DNA from: an uncultured Planctomycetia bacterium
GTDB taxonomy: Bacteria > Omnitrophota > Gorgyraeia > 2-02-FULL-51-18
Length of the DNA stretch: 64,000 nt
Direction: 5' to 3'
Assembly: GCA_964606485.1 (NCBI GenBank)
Contig: CAZSGP010000001.1
Location: forward strand, 225,085-289,084
The notes beneath the pieces were generated by a model. That model saw only the letters and a list, made by a program, of their open reading frames with translations, was not told where the DNA came from and did no database searches. This document shows, piece by piece, positions 4,189 through 22,309 of this stretch. Numbering within the stretch: position 1 is the stretch's first letter; each line of letters begins with the position of its first letter. The translations under genes were made by a program, and so were the position numbers.

Positions 4189-4213
4189 GGATTGATAAAT
4201 TGAGGGTGAATGA

Positions 4214-5002: not shown

Positions 5003-5009
5003 CGTATAA

Positions 5010-5255
5010 ATGGCGCTGACCCCGATTGAGGTGAAAGTCTTAAGTCCTCAGCGGCTCATTTTTGAAGGGCAAGCAAAGAGCATCATTCTCCCGGGAGAAT
5101 CGGGTGTTTTTGAAATTGCCCCGCATCACAAGCGTTTACTTTCCAGATTATTAGGCGGTTTTGTCATTATTGACAATAAGCGCATGTCGATTAAGCGCGG
5201 TGTAGTCAAGGCAGGCTTAAACAAAGTGACAATTATCGTTGAAGAAGATGATTAA
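5010..5255 (+). CDS. atpC: F-type ATPase epsilon subunit, N-terminal beta-sandwich domain only (81 aa). The C-terminal helical hairpin is absent.
   Basis: 'LTPIEVKVLSPQRLIFEGQAKSIILPGESGVFEIAPHHKRLLSRLLGGFVII' matches the epsilon consensus (LxVVTPE...PG..G..GILP.HAPLLT.L.PG.V.I). The protein stops after ~80 aa, with no helical domain. Confidence 0.7.
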   Translation: MALTPIEVKVLSPQRLIFEGQAKSIILPGESGVFEIAPHHKRLLSRLLGGFVIIDNKRMSIKRGVVKAGLNKVTIIVEEDD

Positions 5256-6804
5256 AAAAAACGCTCCGGTTATATTTATTTTTTTGATGGGGATTGGCCT
5301 TTATGTCAATTCTCTCTGCGGCCCATTTATCTATGACGATCTAGAGCTCGTCCGGAACAACGGCAAACTCCAAAGTTTCCAGGCTCTTTCGCAATCCTTT
5401 AAGCAGGATATTAATTTATCGACGGGCCGGACCGGTTTTTTTTACCGGCCCTTTCTTCAGGTGACTTATGCCTTGGACAGTCATTTTTGGAAGGGAAGGG
5501 TTTATGGGTATCATGCCACGAGCATTGTGCTTCACGCGCTTGCGGCTTTGGCGCTCGCTTCTTTAATTTTCATTCTTTTTGGAGATAAACTCGTCGCGTT
5601 TTTAACAGCTCTTTTGTGGCTCGTGCACCCTGTGCATACCGAAGCTGTTTCTTATATTTCAGGACGCGCCGATCCTCTGGCAGCACTCCTACTTTTGTTG
5701 GCGCTTATTTTTTATGTGAGGGGAGACTATGCACACCGGCTGCGAAATCTTTCCCTGCTCATCATTTTTTATGCGCTTGCACTCCTATCTAAAGAACATA
5801 GCCTTATTTTTTTAGCCCTGATCGCTCTCGTTCATCTTGTTTTTAAGAAGCGAATTCAGTGGCCGGCGCTAATTGCGGTAGCGACACTTTCTCTTTTTTA
5901 CGGTTTTTTACGATTTTCTCAGTTACAGACCTTGCTTTCAAATCCTCTCAATCCCAGTACACTTGCGGAGCGTTTACCCGGTTTTTTTGTGGCAGTTGCT
6001 AAATATTTCAAACTTCTCGCGTGGCCTACGAATCTGCGAATGGAGTATGGCCTAAAAATATTCACATTTGCGGACCCTAGAGCCATAGTGGGGGTTGGTA
6101 TTTTAGCGGCCCTCTTTGCCTCTCTCTATTTTTTAAGAAAAAACCGTGTCTGGGTTTTTGGAATCGGCTGGTTTCTCATCACACTTTTACCGGTATCCAA
6201 TCTTTTTCCCATCAATGCATTTATGGCGGAGCACTGGCTCTATCTGCCCTCAATGGGGCTATGGCTCGCTTTTGCCGGCTTATTTTCAAGGGTGCTCCAG
6301 TCTCGCAAGCGTCTAGTTGCGGCACTCGCTTTGGCTGCACTCGCTTCGATGTATAGCCAGGCGACAATGGCTCAAAACAGTTATTGGAGTGACGCGGTAC
6401 TCTTTTACGAACGCACGTTGAAATTTGAACCCAATAATGCGCGCATGTGCAATAACCTCGCCGGAGTTTACAAAGATAGGGGAGACTTTGAGAGCGCAAA
6501 AACTTTCTACCAAAAAGCAATTACCATTGATCCGAATATTGCCGATGTTTATTTTAATTTGGGGACGATTTACGCTCAGGAGAATGATTTGGGAACAGCC
6601 ATGGATTGTTACCAGAAAACCGTTGAGCTGAATCCCAATTTTGCGCTGGCCTACAACAACATGGGCGCGCTTTACCAGGCGCACGGTCAAAATGAGCTCG
6701 CTTTGCTACAATACGAAAAGGCACTAAAACTCAATCCAAACTACAAGCGAGCCGCTGAAAATCTTTCAAATATTAAAATGAGATTGGGGAAGAGCAATGG
6801 ATAA
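5239..6804 (+). CDS. TMTC/PMT-like GT-C family membrane glycosyltransferase (DUF1736-type) with C-terminal TPR repeats.
   Basis: About 10 predicted TM helices. 'FIYDD' acidic motif in loop 1 and 'HPVHTEAV' motif. The C-terminus has about 4 TPR units ('NNLAGVYKDRGDFESAKTFYQKAITIDPN...'). The start overlaps the atpC stop by 17 nt and the stop overlaps the atpE start by 8 nt. Confidence 0.7.
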   Translation: MKKMIKKNAPVIFIFLMGIGLYVNSLCGPFIYDDLELVRNNGKLQSFQALSQSFKQDINLSTGRTGFFYRPFLQVTYALDSHFWKGRVYGYHATSIVLHALAALALASLIFILFGDKLVAFLTALLWLVHPVHTEAVSYISGRADPLAALLLLLALIFYVRGDYAHRLRNLSLLIIFYALALLSKEHSLIFLALIALVHLVFKKRIQWPALIAVATLSLFYGFLRFSQLQTLLSNPLNPSTLAERLPGFFVAVAKYFKLLAWPTNLRMEYGLKIFTFADPRAIVGVGILAALFASLYFLRKNRVWVFGIGWFLITLLPVSNLFPINAFMAEHWLYLPSMGLWLAFAGLFSRVLQSRKRLVAALALAALASMYSQATMAQNSYWSDAVLFYERTLKFEPNNARMCNNLAGVYKDRGDFESAKTFYQKAITIDPNIADVYFNLGTIYAQENDLGTAMDCYQKTVELNPNFALAYNNMGALYQAHGQNELALLQYEKALKLNPNYKRAAENLSNIKMRLGKSNG

Positions 6805-7015
6805 AAATGTCGCTATTATTTTGGTCTTCACGCTTTGCATTTTGGGGCCAACCGCCATTATTGCCGCGGCAGGGCATGCCAGTATTTCAGCTCTCGGCCG
6901 TAATCCCTCGGCCGCTCCCAAGATCTTTACCGCTATGACGATGATGCTCATCTTTGGCGGTATGATTTCCATTGTGGCTCTGCTTGTTCTTTTTCAGCTT
7001 TACGCTACCAAATAA
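6797..7015 (+). CDS. atpE: F-type ATPase subunit c-like proteolipid (72 aa helical hairpin). It apparently lacks the conserved ion-binding Glu/Asp in helix 2.
   Basis: Two hydrophobic helices joined by the polar loop 'ALGRNPSAAPK' (compare the conserved c-subunit 'ARQP(E/D)' loop). Helix 1 is Ala/Gly-rich ('IIAAAGHASISALG'). It sits directly upstream of the b/delta gene. No acidic residue occurs anywhere in helix 2 ('IFTAMTMMLIFGGMISIVALLVLFQLYA'). Confidence 0.6.
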   Translation: MDKNVAIILVFTLCILGPTAIIAAAGHASISALGRNPSAAPKIFTAMTMMLIFGGMISIVALLVLFQLYATK

Positions 7016-7074
7016 AGACAGCCCCCCTCCTTGCTTTTTTTGTTAATTTTTGTTAAAATTTAGATAAAATTTAA

Positions 7075-7151
7075 TGTCATTGCGAGGAGCTTTTGCGACG
7101 AAGCAATCTAGATTTTAGAGCGAGATTGCTTCGCTGACGCTCGCAATGACA
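7075..7151. repeat. Copy 1 of a ~77-bp palindromic intergenic repeat (REP/MITE-like double-stem hairpin).
   Basis: tgtcattgcgag...gaagcaatct..agattgcttc...ctcgcaatgaca. The outer 12-bp and inner ~10-bp inverted repeats are shared with copies at ~22234 and ~25578. Coordinates are +/-2 nt. Confidence 0.75.
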
Positions 7152-7165
7152 AATAGGGGAGTTCG

Positions 7166-7894
7166 ATGCTATTTTTAGTTCTAGTGGTTATTCAGCTCGT
7201 CATCTTCGGTGTCCTGATTTTTCTCCTTAAAAACGTCCTCACCCGCAATGTCCGCACGGCGACCGCGCACCTGAATGAGTTGAACCAAGACTACACTCAA
7301 AAAATGGACGAAGCCAATAAGCGCATGCACGAAGCGGAAAAATTTTACGATGACGCGATTTTGCGATCCAAGACCGATGCCGAACGAGCAAAAATGGAAA
7401 TTTTAAAAGAGGCGCGGTCGCAAGATGAGCAGATTGTAGGGGATGCGCGAAAACAAAGCACCGAAATTTTGGAGCAGGCGCGCCGCGCGCGGGATCTCAT
7501 GATTGAAGAGATTGAACAGAAAATTGAAGTCCGCGCTGTTGAAAGGGCGAGCGAGTTTCTGGCTCAGATCCTTCCTTCTGAAATCAGTATGGATATGCAC
7601 ACTAAATGGACCGAGCAAATCCTTAAAAAAGGATTTTCGGATTTGTCGCGCATGAATTTTCCGGACGGGGAGCTCAAAGTAAAAATTATTTCGGCTTACG
7701 AATTGACAGCGGATCAAAAATCTCAAATCGAAGAAATTCTCCGCACCGCGCTCAAGCGTGAATTTTCTCTGGAAACAGCGTCCGACGTCAGTTTGGTTGC
7801 CGGTATCCAGGTAACAGTGGCCAGTATCGTGATTGACGGAACACTGAAATTTAAGATCCGGGAGATAGCCCGCCGTGCCCAACGAACTGAATAA
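7166..7894 (+). CDS. atpFH: Compact F-type ATPase b-delta fusion stator subunit. It has an N-terminal TM helix, a b-like coiled coil and a delta/OSCP C-terminal domain.
   Basis: N-terminal TM 'LFLVLVVIQLVIFGVLIFLL'. A charged coiled coil typical of subunit b. The C-terminus 'LVAGIQVTVASIVIDGTLKFKIREIARRA' matches the delta C-terminal consensus (LLGGV.V.IGD.VIDGSVRGRLERLA). At 242 aa it is too short to contain a delta N-terminal domain. Confidence 0.7.
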   Translation: MLFLVLVVIQLVIFGVLIFLLKNVLTRNVRTATAHLNELNQDYTQKMDEANKRMHEAEKFYDDAILRSKTDAERAKMEILKEARSQDEQIVGDARKQSTEILEQARRARDLMIEEIEQKIEVRAVERASEFLAQILPSEISMDMHTKWTEQILKKGFSDLSRMNFPDGELKVKIISAYELTADQKSQIEEILRTALKREFSLETASDVSLVAGIQVTVASIVIDGTLKFKIREIARRAQRTE

Positions 7895-8028
7895 TTGGCC
7901 GAAAAAGCCCATCTGCTGCGTTGCTCTCTGCGCTTCCTCAGTCGACGTACGTAAGCGTACGCCTTCTTCGGTCGCTTGGTCGCGCCTTGCATATAGGCTT
8001 TTTGGACCAATTATTGAAGACGGTGAAA

Positions 8029-9501
8029 ATGGCTCCTGATACGACTACGGCGCAGTTTGAAATGCGCGAAGTAGGGCATTTAAAATCCATTAAGCGCTTT
8101 ATTGCTGTGACCGACGACTTGAACTCCTGTATCAATGGCCAGCTCGTGGAGTTTGAAAAAGGAGCGCGCGGCATTGTCATGGGATTTACACACGACAAAA
8201 TTCAAATTTTAGTTCTAGGGCCCACCCAAGGAATCCGTTTGGGGGACGAAATTTATAATCGCGGCGAGTCCTTCAATCTCCCAGTGGGTGAAAAATTTAA
8301 AGGCCGCGTGGTGACCGCTCTCTGCGAGCCAGCGGACGGGCTCGGACCCATTCATGCAGATGACCGGTACCCGGTTTTTCAAGACGCACCCGGCATTATT
8401 GACCGCGAACAGCTCACCGAAACCATGGAAACCGGAACATTTGCGCTCGATGCCGGTATTCCTATTGCCAAAGGACAGCGCCAGCTTTTAATCGGCGACC
8501 GTGGAACGGGAAAAACAACAATCGGCATTGACGCCATTCTCAATCAAAAGGGAAAAGGTGTTATCTGTATTTATTGCGTGATTGGGAAACCGTATTCGAG
8601 CCTTGTCAAAACCTTAGGTCTCCTTCATGAACAGGGGGCGATGGAGCACACGATTGTCGTGAGTGCGGTCGCATCGACCTCTCCTGGTGAGCAGTACATC
8701 GCGCCGTACACTGCGGCGATGCTGGGCGAATATTTCATGAAATCCGGTCGTGATGTGCTTTGCATTTTTGACGATCTCACGAAGCACGCGTGGGTTTACC
8801 GACAAATTTCACTGCTCCTCGAGCGACCTCCGGGTCGCGAAGCGTATCCGGGTGACATTTTTTATATTCACTCTCAACTTTTAGAGCGCGCCGGGCGATT
8901 CACCAAAGATTTAAAGGGCGGTTCGATGACATTTTTACCGATTGTCGAAGTGCTGCAGGGGGACGTGACGGGTTACATCCCCACCAATATTATTTCCATC
9001 ACCGACGGGCAAACGTATTTTTCGACGAACCTTTATAACAAAGGCCACAAGCCCCCGATCGATTTCGGTTTGTCGGTGTCGCGTATTGGAAATAAGGGAC
9101 AGTGGTCGGCCATGAAAGACGTGTCGAAGAGTCTCCGCTTGGAATACCTTCAGTACCAGGAAATGCTTCAGATGACTCAGCTTCGCTCCGGAGGCCTTTC
9201 AAAAGACTCGGAGGCGCGTTTAAAGCGCGGGGAAGCGCTGACGCAGCTTTTAGTGCAGACCAAAAATAAACCGGTTTCTATTCCAGAACAAGTGTTTTTT
9301 TTAATTGCGCTCGGAAAAGGGGTTCTTGACCCGCTTCCTGCGGCACAGATCAAAAAATTTAAAGTGGAAATTTCCGACTTCGTCGATAAAAAAGACCCTG
9401 CAATTTTAAAAGAGCTCAACGAAACAAAAAAACTAACGGACGCAAACAAAGAAAAAATCGTGAACTGTTTAAAGCAGTATTTTGAAAGCGTGGGAGGCTA
9501 A
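8029..9501 (+). CDS. atpA: F-type ATPase alpha subunit.
   Basis: P-loop 'GDRGTGKTTIGIDAILNQKG' and overall F1-alpha architecture. The internal Met at 8029 was chosen because the upstream 36 codons look non-native. Confidence 0.9.
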   Translation: MAPDTTTAQFEMREVGHLKSIKRFIAVTDDLNSCINGQLVEFEKGARGIVMGFTHDKIQILVLGPTQGIRLGDEIYNRGESFNLPVGEKFKGRVVTALCEPADGLGPIHADDRYPVFQDAPGIIDREQLTETMETGTFALDAGIPIAKGQRQLLIGDRGTGKTTIGIDAILNQKGKGVICIYCVIGKPYSSLVKTLGLLHEQGAMEHTIVVSAVASTSPGEQYIAPYTAAMLGEYFMKSGRDVLCIFDDLTKHAWVYRQISLLLERPPGREAYPGDIFYIHSQLLERAGRFTKDLKGGSMTFLPIVEVLQGDVTGYIPTNIISITDGQTYFSTNLYNKGHKPPIDFGLSVSRIGNKGQWSAMKDVSKSLRLEYLQYQEMLQMTQLRSGGLSKDSEARLKRGEALTQLLVQTKNKPVSIPEQVFFLIALGKGVLDPLPAAQIKKFKVEISDFVDKKDPAILKELNETKKLTDANKEKIVNCLKQYFESVGG

Positions 9502-10358
9502 TGCTCCCAGCAACGTTCATCAAGCGGCAGATTGATTTCAATAAACAATTCCGCTCGCTCTTGGACGTGATGAAACTTGTGGCCGTATCCCAGTACCATA
9601 TTTTGGAAAAAAAGCTTCAGTATTTTGATTTGTTCGGTGAAGTGCTCACAGAGTTTTTTGATTCGATTGATGTGAGCCGTGTGAATCACCCTTTTTTAAA
9701 CGGGGGAGACAAGCCGGTAGGGGTTTTGGCGATCACGTCCGACGGGGGACTTTTAGGTGGCATGAACATGCAGGTCATTGCAAAGGCGGTGGATATTTTG
9801 TCGCGTCAGCCAGGAAAGCTGATCATCGTGGGGGAACGTGGACAGATTTATGCGCAGGGTTTTGGAATGTCCTTCACCTACTTTACCGGGATCATCGACA
9901 ACGAGCGCTACGCGCAGGCGATGACGGTGCGGGATTATGTGACGCAGGAAATTTTAAATGGAAATTTAGGGGGATTAAAAGTGGTGTTTCCGAGAGCGTT
10001 GTCGCTCGTGATGAATAAAATTGAAGTCGAGACGCTCGTACCCTTTACGCGTAAAGACGCCGAGGGTGCCGCGCCTAAAACTGGCGGAAGTCTAGCGCAA
10101 GTGATTTTAGAAACGCGCCCTGAAGACATTGCGGAATACTTGGTTTACTTGTACGTAGGGGAGCGGCTATACGAAGTGTTTGGCATGGCGCGACTCGCCG
10201 AACAAGCGGCACGTTTTGTGCACTTGGAAGAAAGCTGTCAAAAAATTCAGGATATGAACAATAAATTGCTCCTTCAGTATTTTAAACGACGTCATGAAAT
10301 TATCGATTCCAATATGCGCGAACTTTTTTCCGCAAAGAAAGCTTATGCCGATGGCTGA
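9501..10358 (+). CDS. atpG: F-type ATPase gamma subunit.
   Basis: 285 aa, gamma-like N- and C-terminal helices ('...LYVGERLYEVFGMARLAEQAARFVHLEES...'). It overlaps the alpha stop by 1 nt and the beta start by 8-14 nt. Confidence 0.8.
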   Translation: MLPATFIKRQIDFNKQFRSLLDVMKLVAVSQYHILEKKLQYFDLFGEVLTEFFDSIDVSRVNHPFLNGGDKPVGVLAITSDGGLLGGMNMQVIAKAVDILSRQPGKLIIVGERGQIYAQGFGMSFTYFTGIIDNERYAQAMTVRDYVTQEILNGNLGGLKVVFPRALSLVMNKIEVETLVPFTRKDAEGAAPKTGGSLAQVILETRPEDIAEYLVYLYVGERLYEVFGMARLAEQAARFVHLEESCQKIQDMNNKLLLQYFKRRHEIIDSNMRELFSAKKAYADG

Positions 10359-11757: not shown

Positions 11758-11776
11758 TAAACCACAAAGGAAAAAT

Positions 11777-12232
11777 ATGCTTCTAGGAGAACGCTTAGTC
11801 AGACTCGGTAAAATTACCGAAGATCAATTGAATGAAGCGCTGACAGAGCAAAAAAATACGAGTGAGTTTTTGGGGAATATTTTGCTCCGGCGTGCTTGGA
11901 TTCGTGAAGACGACTTAACCGAAGTTTTATCCGAGCAGTTCGAGATGCCTTTTATGAAACTCAAGAACGAGTATCTTGACTGGAATTTGATTTTGACATT
12001 TTCGTCAACACTTGTCGTAGAACACAAATGCGTCCCCTTTCGAAAAGACGAAAAAGGGTACACGGTTGCGATCACCAATCCTTTAGACGCGATGGCTATC
12101 AGTGAGGCAGAGAAGCTGGCGCAAAGGGGAGACCGGGTTTCGATTGTTTTGGTGACGCCCAGTCAGATGCATACGGTGATTCGTGAGTATCAAAAACGTT
12201 TATCCGATAAAATAAAAGGACTATTGGGGTAA
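11777..12232 (+). CDS. Stand-alone MshEN/T2SSE_N domain protein (GspE N-terminal domain, a likely c-di-GMP-binding module).
   Basis: 'LGERLVRLGKITEDQLNEALTEQ' fits the MshEN motif RLG..L(V/I)..G.I....L..AL..Q. A good RBS lies 20 nt after the atpD stop. Confidence 0.65.
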   Translation: MLLGERLVRLGKITEDQLNEALTEQKNTSEFLGNILLRRAWIREDDLTEVLSEQFEMPFMKLKNEYLDWNLILTFSSTLVVEHKCVPFRKDEKGYTVAITNPLDAMAISEAEKLAQRGDRVSIVLVTPSQMHTVIREYQKRLSDKIKGLLG

Positions 12233-12238
12233 AAGCGC

Positions 12239-14404: not shown

Positions 14405-15654
14405 TTTATTCGTACCGGGCTAAAAAAGGGCCCAAAGAGCTCGTAGAAGGAACGATAGAAGCGCTGACTGTCGAGGATGCGATTGAGCGGCTCAGCGAAA
14501 AAGGGCTTTTGCCAATCGACGTTCAAGAAGCTAAAGTTCAAGCGGTCGAAGCGCCGAGTCCCCGCGCATCGACGAAGCCTTTACCGCGCAGTCAGCCGGG
14601 CCGCATTACACTTTTTGGAGGGATACGGTCGTCCGAGATCACTGTTCTTTCCCGGCAATTGGCGAGCCTGCTCAAAGCGGGCGTGCCTATTTTGCAAGGT
14701 CTTTGGATTTTGTCCGAACAAACTCAAAATCCGAAACTTAAAAAAGTTTTGACGCACATTCAAGAAGAGGTTAATAACGGTAAATCTCTCTCAGCGATTT
14801 TTTCGCTCTACCCAAAATATTTTCCTCCTATTTACATTGCCATGATTCGCACCGGAGAAGATAGCGGCACGCTTGACTCGGCCCTTTCTCGAATTGCCGA
14901 ATACCGCCGCAAACAGGAAGAAATGCGCTCGCGTGTTCTTTCGGCGATGGCGTACCCGATTCTCATGGCCATCACCGGAGCGGGAACCGTGATATTTATG
15001 CTCACGTTCGTGATTCCAAAGCTAACCAAACTATTTGCAAATTTAGGCCAGAGTCTGCCGGCTCCCACGCGCATTCTGATGACGATGAGTGAATTTTTAA
15101 AACAGCCGGCATTTTGGGGTGTGATCGGCATTCTTGTTGTGGCATTTAATTTATGGGTAAGACTTGCTCCGCAAATGGCACGCGCGGCGTGGAGCGCATT
15201 TAGTTTGAAATTGCCCATCATTAAAGGATTTGTGATGAAATCCGAGATGGCGCGTTTTTCAAGAACCATGGAGCTTCTTTTAAAATCGGGCGTCACGGTT
15301 TTAAGAGCCATTGAAATTACGACGCCGGTTTTAAAGAATGTAATTTTGCGCGCTGAATTTTCAAAGGCCTACCAATCCATCACCGGGGGAGGGTCGCTCG
15401 GAAAATCTTTAAAGGAATCCAAAATAGTGCCGATGTTTGTTTCAAACCTGATCTCGATTGGCGAAGAATCCGGAAAATTAGACGACACAATGAGCGAAAT
15501 CGCGGACTTATATGAACGCGAAACCGACGAGGCGATCCGCGTGATGACCTCGCTGATGGAACCGCTGATGATTTTAGTGATGGGCGGCATTGTGGGTTTT
15601 ATTGTGATTGCGATGATGTTGCCGATGTTTGAATTGAATATGGCAGTTAAATGA
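14401..15654 (+). CDS. gspF: T2SS/T4P platform protein (GspF/PilC family).
   Basis: Duplicated GspF domain architecture with three TM segments. The 4-nt start/stop overlap with gspE is typical. Confidence 0.9.
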   Translation: MIYSYRAKKGPKELVEGTIEALTVEDAIERLSEKGLLPIDVQEAKVQAVEAPSPRASTKPLPRSQPGRITLFGGIRSSEITVLSRQLASLLKAGVPILQGLWILSEQTQNPKLKKVLTHIQEEVNNGKSLSAIFSLYPKYFPPIYIAMIRTGEDSGTLDSALSRIAEYRRKQEEMRSRVLSAMAYPILMAITGAGTVIFMLTFVIPKLTKLFANLGQSLPAPTRILMTMSEFLKQPAFWGVIGILVVAFNLWVRLAPQMARAAWSAFSLKLPIIKGFVMKSEMARFSRTMELLLKSGVTVLRAIEITTPVLKNVILRAEFSKAYQSITGGGSLGKSLKESKIVPMFVSNLISIGEESGKLDDTMSEIADLYERETDEAIRVMTSLMEPLMILVMGGIVGFIVIAMMLPMFELNMAVK

Positions 15655-16535
15655 ATGCAAAACAATCGCAAAACGTCGACGGGTCCTGCCGGCGGTTGTC
15701 CGTTCGGAACCACCTGCGGTGGCTTCCGAGACGGACGCCTACCGCCGTCACCCCTCGACGTTTCGCGATTTTAAGCATTCTCGCTCTATCGATCTGCTGG
15801 TGTTTGGGGGTAGGGGCAGCCGACTGGCAAGAAGTCAAAGGCGATCACTTCATCGTGTATTACATGCAGAACGAGAAGTTCGCCAAAGACACAGCGCATA
15901 AAGCCGAGCAGTATTATGTGAGCATTGCCGACGAACTGGGGTATCCGCGCTACTCCAATTTTTGGCAGTGGGATAACCGGGTTAAAATTTATATTTACCC
16001 AACCCAAGCGGATTATTTAAAGGGGTCGGGCGAGCCAGCGTGGTCGAAGGGCTTCGCGCGCTACAAAACGAAGGACATTTTGACGTATGAGTGGAGCGAC
16101 AGTTTTTTAGAAGCTTTGCTCCCGCATGAAATTACCCATTTAATTTTTAGGGATTTTGTTGGATTCAAAGGCGAAATTCCTCTCTGGATGGACGAGGGGG
16201 TTGCGCAGTGGCAGGAGCCTAAGAAACGGGAAGCTGCCAAAGAAATTGCGAGATATCTTTTAAAGAACCAAAAAGCATTTACGTTTGAATCGCTGATGCA
16301 AATGGACATTCGCGGTTCAAAAAATGAAGAAGAAGTTTACAATTTTTACATGCAATCGGTGACGATTGTGGATTTTATGGTCAAGCGCTACGGCGCGCAA
16401 AGTTTTACCGAGTTCTGCCGGCAGTTGCGGGATGGGAAATCGCTGAATGAAGCTTTGCGGTTTGCTTACCCTGCATCGGGCGGGAATATTGAAAATTTGG
16501 AGAAAGAATGGAAAAAAGTCGTGATGGAGGAATGA
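15651..16535 (+). CDS. Membrane-anchored HExxH-motif protein (putative zinc metallopeptidase-like) embedded in the secretion/pilus operon.
   Basis: Arg-rich N-terminus, then one TM ('FAILSILALSICWCLGVGAA'). 'LPHEITHLIF' HExxH motif. ATGA overlap with the gspF stop. Confidence 0.5.
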   Translation: MNAKQSQNVDGSCRRLSVRNHLRWLPRRTPTAVTPRRFAILSILALSICWCLGVGAADWQEVKGDHFIVYYMQNEKFAKDTAHKAEQYYVSIADELGYPRYSNFWQWDNRVKIYIYPTQADYLKGSGEPAWSKGFARYKTKDILTYEWSDSFLEALLPHEITHLIFRDFVGFKGEIPLWMDEGVAQWQEPKKREAAKEIARYLLKNQKAFTFESLMQMDIRGSKNEEEVYNFYMQSVTIVDFMVKRYGAQSFTEFCRQLRDGKSLNEALRFAYPASGGNIENLEKEWKKVVMEE

Positions 16536-16948
16536 TGATGAAGAACAATAAAAGTGGTTTTACCCTGATCGAATTGATGCTCGTGGTTATTATTATCGGC
16601 GCGCTCGTGGCGATGGTGATGCCGCGTTTAGCCGGTCGTTCCGAGCAAGCCAAAACAGCGGCCGCTCAAGCGGATATCAGTGCCAATATTGCAACCGCTC
16701 TCAAGTTGTACGAGCTCGATAACGGGCACTATCCCGGAACGGATGAGGGCGGACTAAGCGCGCTGCAAACCAAGCCCGGCAACGCTAATAATTGGAAGGG
16801 TCCTTATATTGAAAAGAAGCCTCTGGATCCATGGGGCCGTGAATATCAATACAAGTGTCCGGGCCAACACCGCACTTATGATTACGATCTCTATTCTCTG
16901 GGTCCTGACGGCCAGGAAAGCACGGATGATCCCAAAAACTGGCAATAA
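16532..16948 (+). CDS. gspG: Major pseudopilin (GspG / type IV pilin-like).
   Basis: Class III signal 'KSGFTLIELMLVVIIIGAL' with G|F cleavage and Glu+5. C-terminal GspG-like 'GPYIEKKPLDPWGREYQY'. Confidence 0.85.
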   Translation: MMMKNNKSGFTLIELMLVVIIIGALVAMVMPRLAGRSEQAKTAAAQADISANIATALKLYELDNGHYPGTDEGGLSALQTKPGNANNWKGPYIEKKPLDPWGREYQYKCPGQHRTYDYDLYSLGPDGQESTDDPKNWQ

Positions 16949-17321
16949 GGGGTTTACGCTCGTTGAGCTGATGGTCACGGTGTCCGTTTTGTCTTTGGGC
17001 CTCGTGCTTATCAACGGGTCTTTGCTTCGGATTGCGGACTTGCTAAGCCGCTACAATAATTCACTTGCAGGTTACCGCTGGATGAACGAAAAAATCTGGG
17101 AGTCCAAAGAAGCTTTGTTTTATTCTGAGGAGCCCTCTTCCAGTACCAGTGGTACTGGTGTGATGTCCTTAAACCGAAAGGATGCTTATTGGGTGTTGAG
17201 AGATGAAGATGTTGCCGGTGCCAAAGGAACGCATCTGCTCGACTTGTCTCTCGGGTGGCAACAGGGGCAGGAATTTATTAAGATTACGAAAACGTGTTAT
17301 GCCTCCAGGTCGACGACCTAG
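16926..17321 (+). CDS. Minor pseudopilin (GspH/I-like).
   Basis: 'NKGFTLVELMVTVSVLSLGL' prepilin signal. The internal Met start overlaps the gspG 3' end. Confidence 0.7.
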   Translation: MIPKTGNKGFTLVELMVTVSVLSLGLVLINGSLLRIADLLSRYNNSLAGYRWMNEKIWESKEALFYSEEPSSSTSGTGVMSLNRKDAYWVLRDEDVAGAKGTHLLDLSLGWQQGQEFIKITKTCYASRSTT

Positions 17322-17916
17322 ACTTACCGGTGGATGCGCGGGATTTTCTCTCGTCGAGCTTCTCATCGTTGTTACGCTTGTTCCGATTATTTCTTTAGCG
17401 ATATTTTTTTGTTTCCGCAACTCTACGCTTTTATGGCAGACCTTAAATCAAGAGATGCCCGAAGAAAATATCGCTATTTTTAATCTTCGCGCCGAAACGG
17501 ATTTTAGACAAGCGCTGAGGTATAAAACCATTCCATTTTTTGGATCCGCTCAAGAAGTCTCTTTTGCGGATTATGTTCAAACTCTCGAAACCGTTGGGGG
17601 CGAACACGGAATCGGGGAAGTGAAATACCGCTACGATGAAACGAAGCAGATCGTGATTCGTGAAGAGAGGAATATGAGCGATCTCCACACTCAAAAGCTT
17701 AGAATGTCGAAGGTTGTTTTGCAAAACGTCGACAATTTTTTACTCAGCTACTTAGGGAAGAACGAGCAGACTCACCAGTATGTTTGGCACGAAGAGTGGC
17801 AGCAGCCCGGACGCAAGAGTCTTCCGTGCGCCGTGAAACTTGACTATACCCAAACCACCAGTTTGGGCAATCAGACTTACACCGCCGTTTTTGAAATTCC
17901 GACGGGCGAAGGCTAA
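17299..17916 (+). CDS. Minor pseudopilin (GspJ-like).
   Basis: 'AGFSLVELLIVVTLVPIISLAIFF' prepilin signal. The start was chosen at the internal Met upstream of the signal. Confidence 0.65.
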   Translation: MPPGRRPRLTGGCAGFSLVELLIVVTLVPIISLAIFFCFRNSTLLWQTLNQEMPEENIAIFNLRAETDFRQALRYKTIPFFGSAQEVSFADYVQTLETVGGEHGIGEVKYRYDETKQIVIREERNMSDLHTQKLRMSKVVLQNVDNFLLSYLGKNEQTHQYVWHEEWQQPGRKSLPCAVKLDYTQTTSLGNQTYTAVFEIPTGEG

Positions 17917-17919
17917 GGC

Positions 17920-18933
17920 ATGCGCCAATCTTCAAAAGGGAGCATTTTAGTTTTGTCCTTGTGGGTGCTGGCACTCACGAGCTCTTTTGCTGTAAGTTTG
18001 GGTTATGGGGTTCGTCAGAAAATGACGCTGCTCTCCAGATTAGAAACGCACGCCATACAGTTCCCAATCACCGAAACGGGTGTTCAAAAAGCGCGCGGCA
18101 TGCTGATGGCCGCCGGACCCGTTCAAACCTGGGATTGTCTTTTTGATCCCTGGTATAACAATAAAAGCGCATTCGCCTCGATAGAACTGCCGGAAGGGAC
18201 TTGCCGCGTCACGACGGAGATTTCAGACGGCCACAGCGACACCAAAAAAACGATCTATGGAATAATCGATGAAGAGCGGAAAATTAACATCAACGTATCC
18301 GACGCCAAAACAATTTCCCGCTTGATTCAAAAAGCGGCGTCACTGAGTGAAGGTGAGGCGGATAGTTTGGCCTACAACATCGTCGATTGGCGAGACTCCG
18401 ATTCTTTTTACGGACACCCTAATTTTGGCGCGGAAGATAAGGACTACGAGGATAATAATCCGCCATACGAAGCCAAAGATTCGAATTACGAAACGATTGA
18501 AGAATTATTTTTGGTAAAAGACATAACGGGTAAAATTTTTGCTAAAATAGCGCCTTATCTTACGGTGTACGGTGAAGGCGCCGTGAATATCAACACAGCT
18601 TCCGAGGAAGCGCTGTTTGCGCTTGGATTTGACGAGGGGCTGCTGGATAAAATTTTTCAATACCGCGCCGGAGTCGACCGCGAAGAAGGCACCGCCGATG
18701 ACCGTGTTTTTAGGGAAGCTCAAAATATCGTGAGCGATTTAAATGGTTTTGTGCTTCTGAATCCCACTGAAAAAATTCCTTTGGAAAATGCGGTGGATAA
18801 AGAGATTGTTGGAGTTAGCTCTCTGCACTTTCGAGTTCACTCGGTGGGGCTTCTCAAAAAAGAAGTGCCGCCCATGGAAATTGATGCGGTGGTCACAAAA
18901 AAAGGTCAGATAGTGTCGCTGAGGATTCTGTAA
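17920..18933 (+). CDS. gspK: Minor pseudopilin GspK.
   Basis: 'RQSSKGSILVLSLWVLALTS' GspK-type N-terminus. Helix-hairpin-helix-like 'NINTASEEALFALGFDEGLLDKIFQYRA'. Confidence 0.7.
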   Translation: MRQSSKGSILVLSLWVLALTSSFAVSLGYGVRQKMTLLSRLETHAIQFPITETGVQKARGMLMAAGPVQTWDCLFDPWYNNKSAFASIELPEGTCRVTTEISDGHSDTKKTIYGIIDEERKININVSDAKTISRLIQKAASLSEGEADSLAYNIVDWRDSDSFYGHPNFGAEDKDYEDNNPPYEAKDSNYETIEELFLVKDITGKIFAKIAPYLTVYGEGAVNINTASEEALFALGFDEGLLDKIFQYRAGVDREEGTADDRVFREAQNIVSDLNGFVLLNPTEKIPLENAVDKEIVGVSSLHFRVHSVGLLKKEVPPMEIDAVVTKKGQIVSLRIL

Positions 18934-18937
18934 TCGC

Positions 18938-20383
18938 ATGAAAAAGACCGGAGATTTTTTAGGAATTGAGATCGGGGCGACGCATCTTAAGATTGCGCAC
19001 GTGCGCTCGACAGGTTTGCGGCGCGAAGTAGTGGATTTGATCGCTCAAGAAATCCGGGAAATGAACGACGAAGATGTCGCGGCTTTTATCAAGCGTTCAA
19101 CTGCGTCTCTTAATTTAAAGGATCCTGTTGTTTATTTGAGCGTGCCGCTTCATGCCGTGATCACGCGAAGCATTGAAATTCCATCCCGCGATCCCGAAGA
19201 AATTAAGGAAATCGTAAATCTCCAAGCTAGCCGCCACACTCCCTACTCGCGCTCGGAAATTATTATCGATATGTCAACGCTCGGTGTGGTTCGGGAAAAC
19301 TACACCAAAGTGCTTCTTGTTATAGCGCCCAGAGATTTGGTCACGCGCCAAACAAAAATACTTCAGCGCGCGGGGATGGCCCTTAAGAAAGTGATTTTTT
19401 CACCCGAAGGTCTTTGTATAGCCGTTTCAAAAATTTTAAATATCGAAAATTCTGATGCCACCGTGGCCGTGATTCACATGGACTCGGCCTATACGAGTTT
19501 TTTAGTCACCCAGCGCTCTAAAATCTTGTACGTGAGAGGCATTTCGATTGGGGCTGAACAGCTGATGAATGAAAGGGAATTGTACGCTGAAAAATTTGTC
19601 GACGAATTGACTAAGTCGCTCGAATCTTACACCGCTGACGAAGCGGGCCCCAAAATTTCTCAGGCGGTGTTAACCGGTGTACTGGGCGAGGCAACGGATC
19701 TGGATGACCTTTTCCGGGAATCCCTTCAAATGTCAATTCGACACCAGACTTACTTCAACACATTTACCATTTCGGCGGGTGCTCGGGCCGTGGCAGTCGC
19801 TTCCAAAATGGTTTCTTTTTTTGGAGTGGTCAGCTCGCTCTTACTGTTTGATAAGATAAAAATCGATCTCGTGACCGAAGAGCGGAGGCTAGAGCTCGAA
19901 CTGCATGCACGCGCTAAGCAAATGCTCACGACCGGCGTTTTAACATTGATCGTCCTTGTGTTTTTATTCACCACGTTTACGAGTAAAATCTATTTTAAGA
20001 AAACCTATCTCCATAATTTAATCGCCCGTTACCAGCACACGAAAGAGGAGGCCAAGGGTCTTGAAGAAGTGTTTTCAAAGACACAGGTGATAAAGGATTA
20101 TTTGTCGGGCCGCGGCCAGTCGCTCGAGGCCTTGACACAGGTGTATGATGCGCTTCCTGGGGATGTAAGGGTGGTTGGACTGCGCTACGACGAAGCAGAG
20201 AGATTTACGGTCCGAGGAACATCACGCAGCATGTCGTCCGTGTTTGCATTTGTGACGAATCTAGAAAAATCAAGCGAGTTTCAGAACGTCAAAGCCAAAT
20301 ATGTCACTGCGCGCGCCGAGGAAGGCCAGGACGTGCAAGATTTTGAGATTTCCATGATGATTGAGAAAGGTTCGGGAGCCTAA
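18938..20383 (+). CDS. GspL-like assembly protein. It has a PilM-type actin-like cytoplasmic domain fused to a TM and a PilN-like periplasmic domain.
   Basis: N-terminus 'FLGIEIGATHLKIAHV' (PilM/actin-like fold). A mid-protein TM 'LTLIVLVFLFTTFTS'. Position in the cluster. Confidence 0.55.
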   Translation: MKKTGDFLGIEIGATHLKIAHVRSTGLRREVVDLIAQEIREMNDEDVAAFIKRSTASLNLKDPVVYLSVPLHAVITRSIEIPSRDPEEIKEIVNLQASRHTPYSRSEIIIDMSTLGVVRENYTKVLLVIAPRDLVTRQTKILQRAGMALKKVIFSPEGLCIAVSKILNIENSDATVAVIHMDSAYTSFLVTQRSKILYVRGISIGAEQLMNERELYAEKFVDELTKSLESYTADEAGPKISQAVLTGVLGEATDLDDLFRESLQMSIRHQTYFNTFTISAGARAVAVASKMVSFFGVVSSLLLFDKIKIDLVTEERRLELELHARAKQMLTTGVLTLIVLVFLFTTFTSKIYFKKTYLHNLIARYQHTKEEAKGLEEVFSKTQVIKDYLSGRGQSLEALTQVYDALPGDVRVVGLRYDEAERFTVRGTSRSMSSVFAFVTNLEKSSEFQNVKAKYVTARAEEGQDVQDFEISMMIEKGSGA

Positions 20384-20943
20384 TGCTTTCAAAATTCTCC
20401 GCGTTTTATCAAAAATTTTCTAAAAGAGAAAAACAAATCTTTTGGGGGACCGCTTTGGTTGTCGGGTTCCTTGTTGTTGACCGCGTAGCTCTCGGTCCTG
20501 CCGTCGGAAAAGTGGGGCAGTTAGACTCTCAGATCAAGCAGGAAGAATCCGCCATCCGTAAATCCATGAGTGTGTTGCTTAGAAAAGAGCAGATTGCTCA
20601 GGAAAGTAAGCAGTTTGAGGTTTTTTCGGTAGAAGCCAAAAATCCCGAAGAAGAGATGGTTGGTTTTTTAAAGGAACTTGAAACCATCGCGAGCCAATCC
20701 TCTGTCAATCTTTCGTACGTGAAGCCCGGAAGTTCCGATGAGTCCGGCGGAAAAACACGGAAGTATTACGCTTCTTTGGAATGCGAAGCGCAAATGGAGC
20801 AGATCGCCGGATTTTTCCATAGCCTCGAAAGTTCGACCAAGCTACTTAAAATTGAAAAATACGAAATCCAGCCAAAATCAAAAGAGTCGAGCCTCGCTCG
20901 CTGCACCATGACGGTTTCAAAAACCGTTCTTCTTAAAATTTAA
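20383..20943 (+). CDS. GspM/PilO-like inner-membrane assembly protein.
   Basis: Single N-terminal TM ('IFWGTALVVGFLVV'), then a periplasmic domain. Last gene of the cluster, with an ATGA overlap. Confidence 0.4.
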   Translation: MLSKFSAFYQKFSKREKQIFWGTALVVGFLVVDRVALGPAVGKVGQLDSQIKQEESAIRKSMSVLLRKEQIAQESKQFEVFSVEAKNPEEEMVGFLKELETIASQSSVNLSYVKPGSSDESGGKTRKYYASLECEAQMEQIAGFFHSLESSTKLLKIEKYEIQPKSKESSLARCTMTVSKTVLLKI

Positions 20944-22182: not shown

Positions 22183-22233
22183 AATAGAAGTTAATTTACT
22201 ATTTTTAAGCATTCTTGTCAAACGGTTGGCGAT

Positions 22234-22309
22234 TGTCATTGCGAGCGAAGCGAAGCAATCTCGCTTTTAAGAGCATGATTGCTTCGTCGCTGCGCTTCTC
22301 GCAATGACA
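22234..22309. repeat. Copy 2 of the ~77-bp palindromic intergenic repeat.
   Basis: tgtcattgcgagcgaagcgaagcaatctcgc...gattgcttcgtcgctgcgcttctcgcaatgaca. It lies between divergent genes. Confidence 0.75.

Follow-up and report, generated by a model that had tools for sequence, protein, structure and literature searches.

In Omnitrophota, genes of the F-type ATPase are known to be located near those of the type-4a pilus: the two sets were at most 10 kb apart on 57 of 66 contigs, and a role of the co-located genes in attachment or motility was proposed (Seymour et al., 2023; PMC10066038). The original prediction held that a chimeric system of this kind would be novel; the co-location had already been published. 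Several features of the locus described here were not met in the literature that we searched, namely the lack of subunit a, the degenerate glutamate of the c subunit, an epsilon subunit made of its N-terminal domain only, the fusion of b to a partial delta, the 262-aa anchor of a giant protein, the PilZ domain on GspE, and a stand-alone MshEN protein ahead of GspE.

Layout of the locus

The window, by which we mean the whole 64-kb stretch of DNA analysed, begins with 19 successive genes on the + strand, which fill bases 1-20943 and are followed by a convergent gene:

1..4188, + strand: giant surface protein, C-terminal 1,395 codons; tandem Ig-like (Kre9_KNH-type) repeats, then helical regions
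4214..5002, + strand: 262-aa anchor module of the giant protein (AlphaFold2 model, pLDDT 82.5)
5010..5255, + strand: epsilon N-terminal beta-sandwich domain, 81 aa (Pfam ATP-synt_DE_N, E = 5.9e-13)
5248..6804, + strand: multi-pass membrane protein, 518 aa, with C-terminal TPR repeats (Pfam: TPR only)
6797..7015, + strand: c-subunit homologue, 72-aa hairpin (Pfam ATP-synt_C 23.8 bits, just under the cut-off of 24)
7166..7894, + strand: b-delta fusion, 242 aa, peripheral stator (Pfam OSCP, profile positions 100-170 of 172)
8026..9501, + strand: F1 alpha, 491 aa from ATG (NCBIfam atpA 527.8 bits, cut-off 484.45)
9501..10358, + strand: F1 gamma, 285 aa, rotor shaft (Pfam ATP-synt, E = 1.2e-35)
10351..11757, + strand: F1 beta, 468 aa (NCBIfam atpD 551.3 bits, cut-off 462.85)
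11777..12232, + strand: stand-alone MshEN-domain protein, 151 aa (Pfam MshEN; NCBIfam c-di-GMP_motif 63.9 bits, cut-off 38)
12239..14404, + strand: GspE/PilB-type assembly ATPase, 721 aa (Pfam T2SSE, E = 1.7e-129; MshEN; PilZ)
14401..15654, + strand: GspF/PilC-type inner-membrane platform protein (Pfam T2SSF, E = 6.9e-65)
15651..16535, + strand: exported zinc metallopeptidase Peptidase_MA_2 (HEITH motif, signal peptide)
16508..16948, + strand: GspG-type major pseudopilin (NCBIfam GspG equivalog 138.4 bits, cut-off 88.85)
16935..17321, + strand: minor pseudopilin (prepilin N-terminal methylation motif)
17329..17916, + strand: GspJ-like minor pseudopilin (Pfam T2SSJ, E = 1.1e-7; N_methyl)
17920..18933, + strand: GspK-like minor pseudopilin (Pfam T2SSK_1st, E = 2.8e-16; NCBIfam GspK 66 bits, under the cut-off of 130)
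18938..20383, + strand: PilM-PilN fusion (Pfam PilM_2, PilN; NCBIfam pilM 87.5 bits, under the cut-off of 133)
20383..20943, + strand: PilO/GspM-like protein, last gene of the array (weak Pfam PilO; NCBIfam GspM 32 bits, under the cut-off of 60)
20948..21646, - strand: convergent periplasmic TPR protein (signal peptide without lipobox; weak PilW/Tgl-like scores)

The predicted union of ATPase and type II secretion (T2SS)/pilus-like genes in one same-strand array was confirmed with its coordinates and gaps, while the count of 20 consecutive genes between 5010 and 20943 has to be corrected to 17, or 19 if the two upstream genes are included. All genes of the array are intact reading frames, spaced by -28 to +25 nt with two exceptions of about 130-150 nt (c to b-delta, 150 nt; b-delta to alpha, 131 nt). 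The giant gene and the 262-aa anchor gene are 25 nt apart, and the latter is separated from epsilon by 7 nt. Beta and the MshEN gene are separated by 19 nt containing an AAGGA ribosome-binding site, and no terminator-like site was found at this junction (11757-11777). Part of the 150-nt gap ahead of b-delta is occupied by a dispersed, mobile-looking palindromic repeat of 77 nt. No secretin, prepilin peptidase, or retraction ATPase was found within the window. The convergent TPR protein is a possible accessory of the system, although its membership is uncertain; at least six relatives have an opposite-strand TPR match after PilO.

Components of the three modules

Alpha and beta exceed the atpA and atpD cut-offs and, judging from these scores, are bona fide F-type subunits. 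The best PDB relatives of alpha are canonical bacterial F1 alpha subunits; it aligns to atpA profile positions 20-498, with about 19 N-terminal residues of the canonical subunit missing, and its ORF is open from TTG 7921, the gene caller's start, which corresponds to 526 aa. Alignment of beta to solved beta subunits showed that the P-loop GGAGLGKS, GERLREGNE, and Walker B FADNVFRF are intact and that YVPADDMTDPA and DELSKAD are also kept. Epsilon matches positions 2-79 of the 130-position NCBIfam profile and lacks the C-terminal helical domain, as do its counterparts of 74-90 aa in 59 of 59 relatives. In the b-delta protein, a transmembrane helix at the N-terminus is followed by a b-type coiled coil, and of delta/OSCP the C-terminal part alone is present; among NCBIfam models it scores best against the long b subunit of the alternate (N-type) F1Fo (45 bits, far below the cut-off), and its orthologue in one relative (L058) also matches ATP-synt_B.

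Sequence comparison identifies the c subunit as a genuine F-type homologue without the ion-binding carboxylate in the window. The c sequence of a relative matches solved c subunits (9itj_H, E = 3.7e-6), its E aligning with the ion-binding E; the window has G at this position. Among 61 c sequences the column contains E (19), Q (21), A (8), T (5), S (3), G (2), V (2), or L (1) and is non-acidic in 42, while the rest of the subunit is conserved and the cytoplasmic loop ALGRNPSxAPKIFTAM, which faces gamma and epsilon, is nearly invariant. About one third of the family keeps the c-ring Glu, and some ion-related role is possible in those lineages. Neither the cluster nor the large ORFs scanned over the 64 kb yielded a gene for subunit a. 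There is also no room for it in relatives, where epsilon and c are a median of 18 nt apart, and c and b-delta 101 nt; it is absent between epsilon and b-delta in every locus examined, the larger inserts there being unrelated genes. These observations support the earlier description of the F1Fo-like motor as non-translocating.

The 518-aa gene between epsilon and c was considered as an ATPase subunit and rejected, its product being a multi-pass membrane TPR protein. A match at the epsilon/c position was found only in the closest relative (L005), a weak TPR match in L067 lying elsewhere, and the N-terminal domain had no match among PDB sequences; we class the gene as a lineage-specific insertion outside the core system. 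Its N-terminal YDD-containing region may resemble GT-C/TMTC-type glycosyltransferases.

The giant gene begins upstream of the window, and its protein ends without a transmembrane helix; orthologues in two relatives are of 8,065 and 4,130 aa. The following 262-aa protein starts with a signal peptide, which precedes an Ig-like beta-sandwich and a three-helix bundle; it ends in a C-terminal transmembrane helix with a short tail in the cytoplasm, and had no match in Pfam or NCBIfam. The tail is conserved, and the transmembrane helix highly so, with W214, F223, L227, F231, T234, W235, and Q238 invariant. A separate gene in the window, it forms one reading frame with the giant gene in 38 of 63 relatives; the module occurs in 962 representative clusters, in many of them at the C-terminus of proteins of 1,000-5,013 aa. 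We take the 262-aa gene to encode the part that anchors the giant Ig-repeat protein in the membrane.

In the secretion-like module, the stand-alone MshEN protein is a predicted c-di-GMP receptor, and 63 of 96 loci have a separate MshEN-type gene between beta and GspE. The assembly ATPase carries MshEN at its N-terminus and PilZ at its C-terminus and scores almost equally as GspE (573 bits) and PilB (568 bits), both slightly under the cut-offs. The window has both PilZ motifs, RRQFER and DVSAGG; in 108 complete orthologous ORFs, 104 have the length of the PilZ fusion (about 675-760 aa) and 97 have both motifs. The platform protein scores higher as GspF (371 bits) than as PilC (315 bits), the median identity of GspG among relatives is 73%, and the PilM-PilN fusion, of GspL-like architecture, is part of the assembly platform. 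Peptidase_MA_2, present in 49 loci of the first relative set, is a conserved accessory of the cluster.

Gene order in relatives

All relatives carrying the cluster belong to Omnitrophota; a gamma homologue search found 338, with the 120 listed being 48-86% identical. Phylum-wide, alpha has a median identity of 63% and beta one of 67%. In relatives whose gamma is only 42-57% identical, GspE-PilZ follows beta at a distance of at most 2.5 kb in 62 of 63 loci and, because of this recurrence, the arrangement is far beyond chance. When the search was reversed and began from the metallopeptidase in metagenome contigs, 23 of 28 loci had beta upstream, and insertions account for three of the other five. 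The adjacency is therefore not incidental. On the upstream side, anchor, epsilon, and c precede b-delta in this order in 49 of 51 loci, and in 46 of 49 the giant gene immediately precedes the anchor. Gene calls on six contigs, one of them the source genome, gave a spacing of -1 to 19 nt between beta and the next gene, with the beta stop overlapping the next start codon in two of the six. Adjacency across deep divergence, this close spacing, and the lack of a terminator at the junction support the co-transcription and functional linkage originally suggested. The gene order indicates co-inheritance and probably co-expression; it does not imply contact between the modules.

The sole exception of the 63 is L058, in which ExeA-like, GspC-like, secretin, and TPR genes are directly upstream of a b-delta-alpha-gamma-beta block that has no epsilon, c, or anchor and no adjoining giant gene. 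Insertions between modules include the TPR membrane protein in the window and toxin-antitoxin-like genes in L073, and in L019 and L160 about 10 kb separates GspF from the rest.

Proposed mechanism and its alternatives

We lean, with somewhat better than even confidence, towards a three-module Omnitrophota operon in which an ATP-hydrolysing, ion-uncoupled rotary motor works with a giant fibre and a secretion-like machine upon contact with host or prey. Its modules are an Ig-repeat envelope fibre with a C-terminal anchor module; an F1Fo-derived ATPase (alpha3beta3, gamma, epsilon N-domain, c-ring, and b-delta stator) without subunit a and without an obligatory c-ring carboxylate; and a type II secretion/type IV filament machine of GspE-PilZ, GspF, GspG, three minor pseudopilins, PilMN, PilO, and the exported metallopeptidase. 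The ATPase would run in the hydrolysis direction only, because epsilon has no inhibitory C-terminal domain and there is no proton or sodium path. ATP hydrolysis would rotate gamma, epsilon, and the c-ring against the b-delta stator. The c-ring would be retained for its use in the membrane as rotor or bearing and not to carry ions, and torque might be passed to an adjoining membrane partner, most plausibly the giant-fibre anchor, through its transmembrane helix and tail, or the GspF/PilMN/PilO platform. Physical coupling of the motor to the fibre or the secretion machine is what we infer. A link to the upstream fibre partner appears at least as strongly indicated as a physical ATPase-T2SS chimera, since just 7 nt separate the gene of the giant protein's transmembrane anchor from epsilon. 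With a secretin whose gene lies elsewhere, the secretion-like machine may deploy either the fibre or the peptidase across the outer membrane, gated by c-di-GMP that acts on the MshEN protein and on the PilZ domain. The system would probably let the cell attach to, move on, or attack its host or prey.

It is possible, if doubtful, that the modules are co-regulated and physically independent, the F1-like ATPase serving the giant fibre only and the secretion-like system separately exporting the metallopeptidase or other cargo, with an operon shared for host contact. The position of the ATPase directly after the anchor, the anchor-giant fusions, and the insertions tolerated between ATPase and T2SS genes and inside the T2SS part are consistent with such independence, and the L058 block indicates that sub-blocks are separable. 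However, the adjacency of beta to GspE/MshEN is as conserved as that of anchor to epsilon, the stop and start codons after beta can overlap, and the ATPase block of L058 adjoins secretin genes and not a giant gene.

An export or unfolding ATPase, after the FliI/FliH/FliJ comparison drawn in the original prediction, whose F1-like head would dock on the membrane platform and feed or drive the export of the giant protein or of pseudopilins with no c-ring torque, is unlikely. Type III export ATPases are homologues of F1 (NCBIfam FliI/SctN gives 150-190 bits on alpha and beta), and the cluster contains a candidate for a very large exported substrate. Nevertheless, the head is of the true alpha/beta heterohexamer type, the cluster already has a dedicated ATPase in GspE, and gamma, the epsilon foot, and c with its near-invariant loop are kept, which argues against an export ATPase because it would not need rotor parts.

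Very unlikely, in our judgement, is a conventional ion-translocating ATP synthase or ATPase with subunit a encoded elsewhere and secretion genes adjacent without mechanistic meaning. Canonical atpA and atpD scores and the Glu kept in 19 c subunits would fit it, and, the search for subunit a having covered the 64-kb window, a gene elsewhere in the genome is conceivable; the reading is opposed by carboxylate replacement in an otherwise conserved c, the loci without an a gene between epsilon and b-delta, an epsilon uniformly without its regulatory domain, and near-universal synteny with T2SS genes. Incidental adjacency or a decaying, functionless ATPase, for which apart from the general possibility only the palindromic repeat speaks, is effectively refuted by an order kept in >100 loci at gamma identities down to 42%, intact reading frames, conserved catalytic motifs, the c loop, and the seven invariant residues of the anchor helix.

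Among known systems, FliI/FliH/FliJ of type III secretion resemble the ATPase module by analogy only, and a motor serving the giant fibre alone, internal and with external legs, would be likened to the gliding machinery of Mycoplasma.

Organization and conservation of the gene array

The forward strand of the window carries 19 back-to-back genes between positions 1 and 20943, in which the genes of an F-type ATPase stand between those of a giant protein and a secretion/pilus-like set.

1-4188, +, C-terminal 1,395 codons of the giant protein (tandem Ig-like repeats, then helical regions)
4214-5002, +, 262-aa protein without a family match
5010-5255, +, epsilon N-domain
5248-6804, +, 518-aa multi-pass membrane protein with TPR repeats
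6797-7015, +, c-like protein (72 aa)
7166-7894, +, b-delta fusion (stator protein)
8026-9501 (ORF open from 7921), +, alpha
9501-10358, +, gamma
10351-11757, +, beta
11777-12232, +, MshEN protein (151 aa)
then in order, +, GspE with a C-terminal PilZ domain, and GspF
then in order, +, Peptidase_MA_2 metallopeptidase with a signal peptide, GspG, and three minor pseudopilins (two of them GspJ-like and GspK-like, respectively)
last in order, +, ending at 20943, PilM-PilN fusion and PilO/GspM-like protein

The reading frame of the giant protein is already open at base 1 of the window. Intergenic gaps range from -28 to +25 nt, except for 150 nt before b-delta and 131 nt before alpha. The original prediction of one same-strand array had the coordinates and gaps right and counted 20 genes from 5010 to 20943, where there are actually 17. 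It also suggested co-transcription of the ATPase and secretion genes; at the junction (11757-11777), the beta stop codon and the MshEN gene are separated by a 19-nt gap with a ribosome-binding site inside and without a terminator-like hairpin. A promoter-like match at 11754-11781 (9 of 12) was rejected as an internal promoter because it overlaps the MshEN start codon, and promoter-like matches in the junction region were only modestly above those in shuffled sequence.

The array ends at 20943, where it is followed by genes for a convergent periplasmic TPR protein and a cyclophilin; the remainder of the window is made up of housekeeping genes plus an autotransporter, an integrase and a heavy-metal resistance island. 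Within 34944-62169, the tyrosine recombinase/integrase gene (34944-35858) precedes this island, which is probably mobile and encodes two RND efflux systems (with their outer-membrane and membrane-fusion proteins) as well as a multicopper oxidase, a cation-diffusion facilitator, an ECF sigma factor and a P-type ATPase, with HMBD or YHS metal-binding domains in several of these proteins. Rfam models at gathering thresholds and a tRNA scan gave zero matches over the whole window. Part of the 150-nt gap between c and b-delta consists of a ~77-nt dispersed palindromic repeat (GTCATTGCGAGGAGC...GCTCGCAATGAC) found at 7076-7152 (+), 22232-22308 (-) and 25579-25655 (+), all intergenic, which looks like a REP or MITE-type element. 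This gap folds at -46.7 kcal/mol (z = -4.4) into a very stable nested hairpin formed by the repeat; a system-specific regulatory RNA was rejected because the same repeat is dispersed over three sites. The 518-aa TPR membrane protein between epsilon and c had a match at the same position only in the closest relative (locus L005). Its N-terminal membrane domain gave no match in a PDB sequence search or in Pfam, and its YDD motif may point to a GT-C/TMTC-like glycosyltransferase.

Conservation of the array was examined among relatives of the present genome. The gamma search returned 338 homologues, and a scan limited to one genome per species gave 141 relatives, from which the best 80 of 141 loci were used for synteny counts. 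These 80 come almost all from Omnitrophota MAGs/SAGs, and otherwise from MAGs with automatic labels such as "Planctomycetia," "Planctomycetales," "Deltaproteobacteria," or "uncultured bacterium." When all window proteins were mapped by tblastn onto the loci of relatives, GspE-PilZ was found within 2.5 kb downstream of beta in 62 of the 63 loci that extend far enough downstream; the 262-aa gene, epsilon, and c stood in this order upstream of b-delta in 49/51 loci, and the giant gene was directly upstream of the 262-aa gene in 46/49. The gene order was the same in four contigs read out in full, in three of which gamma is just 50-51% identical, and the spacing from beta to the next gene was -1 to 19 nt by gene calls in six contigs, one of them the present genome. 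In the reverse test, which started from the metallopeptidase in metagenome contigs, beta was found upstream in 23 of 28 loci. Among the other five, GspE lies at the very edge of the fetched flank in two, two are without such an explanation, and the fifth is a contig with ~10 kb inserted (L019). Adjacency of the ATPase and secretion genes is not incidental, and the array is very probably one functional unit.

The sole exception in the forward test is the locus L058, where ExeA-like AAA_22, GspC-like, secretin, and TPR genes are directly upstream of b-delta-alpha-gamma-beta; this variant locus (3306-12609) has an IS200-type transposase downstream, and its upstream side is without epsilon, c, anchor, and giant gene. 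Because of the ExeA-like, GspC-like and secretin genes, it is still linked to secretion-system genes, in a second arrangement, and it may hint at where the secretin module of the system sits in other genomes. The contig with the ~10-kb insert (357,304 bp, recovered as both L019 and L160) carries a split cluster: beta-MshEN-GspE-GspF is followed by ~10 kb of other sequence, beyond which a second copy of GspE (565 aa, without PilZ) is present upstream of the metallopeptidase and pseudopilin genes.

An F-type ATPase with a missing or degenerate ion path

Alpha scored 527.8 bits against the NCBIfam atpA model (cut-off 484.45) and beta 551.3 bits against atpD (cut-off 462.85), and the closest solved relatives of both are ordinary bacterial F1 subunits. 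By alignment, beta retains the P-loop, the catalytic Glu of GER(x)REGNE, Walker B, the adenine-pocket motif, and a DELSxxD-like loop. A catalytic alpha3beta3 head, as in canonical F1Fo, is indicated by these scores together with the P-loop, catalytic Glu, and Walker B.

Subunit a was not found, since none of the large ORFs scanned in the 64-kb window matched ATP-synt_A. Room for it is also lacking in the relatives, where the median spacing is 18 nt between epsilon and c and 101 nt between c and b-delta. The few large inserts in this interval were considered as a hiding place for subunit a and rejected: those in the relative's locus L073 are nucleotidyltransferase/toxin-antitoxin-like genes, and the window has the 518-aa TPR membrane protein there. 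The c-like gene encodes a true c subunit, as the sequence of a relative matched c subunits of known structure (9itj_H, E = 3.7e-6) and its Glu aligns with their ion-binding Glu. The residue at this position among 61 relatives is E in 19, Q in 21, A in 8, T in 5, S in 3, G in 2, V in 2 and L in 1; it is G in the window. Small residues are characteristic of the window's own clade (gamma at least 50% identical), and E or Q of more distant clades. The column was set by alignment with canonical c sequences, and the PDB alignment confirms it independently. The cytoplasmic loop of c, ALGRNPSxAPKIFTAM, is nearly invariant; in F-ATPases this loop contacts gamma and epsilon.

Epsilon consists of the N-terminal beta-sandwich alone (81 aa, profile positions 2-79 of 130), and it has 74-90 aa in all 59 relatives, with the C-terminal domain absent throughout. 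In bacterial F1 it is the C-terminal domain of epsilon that inhibits ATP hydrolysis. In the b-delta protein, a transmembrane helix and a b-type coil are joined to no more of delta than its C-terminal part (OSCP positions 100-170 of 172), and alpha, aligned from profile position 20 onwards, is without ~19 N-terminal residues. The N-terminal residues of alpha and the N-terminal domain of delta normally bind each other, and with both missing the attachment of the stator to the head must be of a different kind.

With few exceptions, rotary ATPases convert energy by coupling to ions. In the present complex, which is widespread and strongly conserved, the rotor (gamma, the epsilon foot, and the c-ring) and the stator (b-delta) are kept, subunit a is missing from the cluster, and the c carboxylate is gone in most lineages. 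This pattern indicates strong constraint on rotor and stator but not on the parts for ion translocation, and it implies that torque is used for something other than ion transport. We consider the ATPase to be probably uncoupled from ions.

The secretion module, the giant protein and a proposed mechanism

The best description of the module downstream of beta is a T2SS-flavoured type IV filament machine, whose secretin would be encoded elsewhere. Its major pilin is of the GspG rather than the PilA type and passes the equivalog cut-off (138.4 vs. 88.85). GspF scored 371 against its own model (cut-off 424), which outscores the PilC model on the same protein, and the GspE and PilB models were nearly equal on the ATPase of the module (573 vs. 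a cut-off of 630, and 568 vs. 676, respectively). Scores for the remaining NCBIfam models were weaker, with GspK at 66 (cut-off 130), GspM at 32 (cut-off 60), and PilM at 87.5 (cut-off 133); PilN and PilO were recognized by Pfam. Among the large ORFs scanned in the window there was no secretin (GspD or PilQ), GspC, PilP, prepilin peptidase, or PilT. The exported metallopeptidase, with its HExxH motif, belongs to the module as a constant component. The convergent periplasmic TPR protein (20948-21646, -) has a signal peptide, no lipobox, and weak PilW/Tgl-like scores; an opposite-strand TPR match follows the PilO-like gene in at least six relatives, and this protein could be a secretin-assembly factor.

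Two putative c-di-GMP receptors are encoded next to each other. The PilZ domain of GspE, with the motifs RRQFER and DVSAGG, is predicted to bind c-di-GMP; of 108 complete orthologous GspE ORFs, 104 are of PilZ-fusion length (~675-760 aa), and 97 carry both motifs. The 151-aa MshEN protein passes the c-di-GMP-motif model NF053729 (63.9 vs. a cut-off of 38), and a separate MshEN protein is located upstream of GspE in 63/96 loci.

The 262-aa protein, whose gene directly precedes epsilon with a 7-nt gap, was modelled with AlphaFold2 (pLDDT 82.5) as a signal peptide, an Ig-like sandwich of seven strands, a bundle of three helices, and, at the C-terminal end, a long transmembrane helix. This helix is the most conserved stretch of the protein, with W214, F223, L227, F231, T234, W235, and Q238 invariant in 30 sequences, and it leads into a conserved cytoplasmic tail with a conserved FSEFK-type motif. 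The homologous region is in frame with the giant ORF and without a signal peptide in 38 of 63 relatives, as in the read-through ...SPIVSTSLQLGS-VRFRITAANPS... of the locus L044. Judging from these fusions and the model, the 262-aa protein is the membrane anchor of the giant protein. Fibre and anchor are therefore split into two genes in the present genome, and the ancestral state was probably a single giant protein anchored in the inner membrane. A profile search of 1.84 billion representative proteins with the anchor module gave 962 clusters, comprising stand-alone proteins of ~260-300 aa, the very C-termini of 1,000-5,013-aa proteins, and proteins of 420-690 aa. The last group, which accounts for many clusters (e.g., the representatives P0192 and P0214), has a signal peptide, two to three tandem modules of Ig domain plus three-helix bundle, and the conserved transmembrane helix.

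The giant gene encodes 8,065 aa in one relative (on CAZXLF010000002.1) and 4,130 aa in another. The start of the giant ORF in the locus L027 resembles the middle of a repeat, unlike a true start, and the giant protein's last 562 aa, used as a query, gave just five matches, none of them a full-length giant. The autotransporter at 26556-28631 (+) has a C-terminal beta-barrel domain (E = 1.3e-68). The presence of this gene and of OEP-family genes means that the organism has an outer membrane, which matters for the route of an inner-membrane-anchored giant fibre to the surface.

We propose that ATP hydrolysis would turn gamma, epsilon, and the c-ring against b-delta. Because subunit a is absent, a different component of the membrane would have to take up the torque; conserved membrane proteins encoded nearby are limited to the anchor and to the GspF/PilMN/PilO platform, and one or both of them are thus the favoured partners. 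The secretion-like machine would bring the fibre, or else the peptidase, through the outer membrane, and deployment at contact with a host or prey would be gated by c-di-GMP. In the main rival explanation, the ATPase serves the fibre alone, as in the gliding machinery of Mycoplasma, and the secretion system works alongside without contact. The M. mobile motor is associated with the giant membrane-anchored surface proteins Gli349 and Gli521, which resemble the giant anchored fibre encoded here. Direct mechanical coupling is the mode that we favour, as a possibility falling somewhat short of probable, and we lean narrowly towards the proposed explanation as a whole.

In its fullest form, the proposal is of a new envelope nanomachine, in which an ion-free F1Fo-derived motor, through ATP-driven rotation of the c-ring, would do mechanical work across the inner membrane, turning, reeling, or swinging a giant fibre of Ig repeats (4,000-8,000 aa) via its conserved transmembrane anchor, together with a c-di-GMP-gated T2SS/pilus-like apparatus. 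This full form is tentative, and we hold it to be rather doubtful. If true, ultra-small predatory or epibiotic bacteria would thereby grapple with other cells, or move on them, in a way that is new, and F1 would have been recruited for motility or adhesion a second time, independently of Mycoplasma. The fixed neighbours, namely the membrane anchor of the giant fibre and the c-di-GMP-controlled secretion/pilus machine, are concrete candidate partners of the motor, and the hypothesis is testable in the enrichment-cultured predator Velamenicoccus archaeovorus, which belongs to Omnitrophota. It bears on host attachment and attack by nanobacteria, on the re-purposing of rotary motors in evolution, and on the purpose of the giant genes of this phylum.

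Comparison with known systems

The original prediction drew an analogy with FliI-FliH-FliJ, where a secretion apparatus is likewise combined with an F1/V1-related ATPase and FliJ and FliH correspond to gamma and b-delta, respectively. FliI is homohexameric and works without a c-ring, whereas the present proteins are true F-type alpha and beta (150-190 bits for FliI/SctN models vs. 528-551 for atpA/atpD).

The system resembles N-ATPases (atpDCQRBEFAG) in its long b subunit (~245 aa) and in the absence of a separate delta. The best NCBIfam match of b-delta was in fact alt_F1F0_F0_B, almost over its full length, at 45.1 bits vs. a cut-off of 224.7; the other alt_F1F0 models gave 486.7 vs. 750.5 for alpha, 499.5 vs. 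752 for beta, and 34.8 vs. 282 for gamma. N-ATPases pump ions. Unlike them, the present cluster has a different gene order and is without AtpQ, AtpR, and subunit a.

With canonical F1Fo, the system shares homologues of alpha, beta, gamma, epsilon, c, b, and delta, and likewise the order c-b/delta-alpha-gamma-beta. The cluster departs from it in that subunit a is absent and atpI was not found, that the epsilon gene comes first and encodes a single domain, that the c Glu/Asp is dispensable, that delta is incomplete and the alpha N-terminal residues are gone, and that the genes stand between a giant-protein anchor and T2SS genes.

T2SS, type IVa pili, and MSHA pili share with the secretion module GspE/PilB, GspF/PilC, GspG, the GspJ-like and GspK-like proteins, PilM-PilN (GspL-like), and PilO (GspM-like), and the c-di-GMP-binding MshEN domain is shared with MshE. 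Unlike T2SS and type IVa pili, the cluster (and the window) is without secretin, GspC, prepilin peptidase, and PilT; GspE carries the extra C-terminal PilZ domain, the MA-clan metallopeptidase is fixed, and the F-type ATPase is inserted upstream.

The Mycoplasma type 2 (the M. mobile G1-ATPase, MMOB1660/1670) and type 3 (MSC_0618/0619) ATPases are similar in being F1-derived, in serving a non-bioenergetic surface task, and in the absence of subunit a. The Omnitrophota system differs in that it retains c, b-delta, and epsilon, adjoins T2SS genes, and is encoded together with outer-membrane proteins (autotransporter and OEP-family); the Mycoplasma clusters are not known to have these three subunits, an outer-membrane context, or T2SS neighbours. 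Alpha and beta scored 397.5 vs. 600, 409.2 vs. 850, 293.2 vs. 520, and 372.1 vs. 570 against the Mycoplasma models, all below their atpA/atpD scores, and the M. mobile G1 beta in the PDB (9io5_A) gave 334 bits vs. 430-480 for canonical beta. By these profile scores the ATPase falls outside both the Mycoplasma type 2/3 families and the N-ATPases; it may work like the Mycoplasma type 2/3 ATPases.

Loci of the same type were described in Omnitrophota as "symbiotic" F-type ATPase/type-4a pilus loci, with F-type ATPase and pilus genes within 10 kb on 57/66 contigs and every class represented (Seymour et al., 2023, Nat Microbiol, PMC10066038). In that study, alpha and beta of a non-respiratory F-type adjoin pilus-type genes, for which involvement in attachment and motility was suggested. 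The present locus likewise has alpha and beta within 10 kb of pilus-type genes on one contig, with beta 19 nt from the MshEN/GspE genes. The novelty claimed in the original prediction does not survive this publication; its observation stands, and its interpretation is partly supported. Omnitrophota alpha was reported to cluster with the Mycoplasma type 2/3 F1-like ATPases (Seymour et al., 2023), which is not mirrored by our profile scores, where canonical atpA/atpD are higher; profile scores alone are a caution and not a refutation, and long-branch effects in the published alpha tree are possible.

In the accessible parts of the main text and supplements of Seymour et al. (2023), the analysis is confined to alpha and beta trees and to co-location and cluster distances, and these parts mention neither the loss of subunit a, the c subunit and its carboxylate, the truncated epsilon, and b-delta, nor the giant protein and anchor, the PilZ/MshEN sensors, and the metallopeptidase. 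A 2026 preprint goes no further than listing an "incomplete" F1Fo set, and West-Roberts et al. (2023) tied the giant genes of Omnitrophota to a different, gspD/rcpC-containing locus and did not mention an F-type ATPase. Beyond these reports, our literature search did not find an F-type ATPase without subunit a in the setting of a pilus or of secretion. The published loci are described as having type-4a pili, whereas the major pilin here is a GspG equivalog and the GspF score is higher than the PilC score. The locus is a further member of a published, experimentally untouched class, and its anatomy is more unusual than the literature states.
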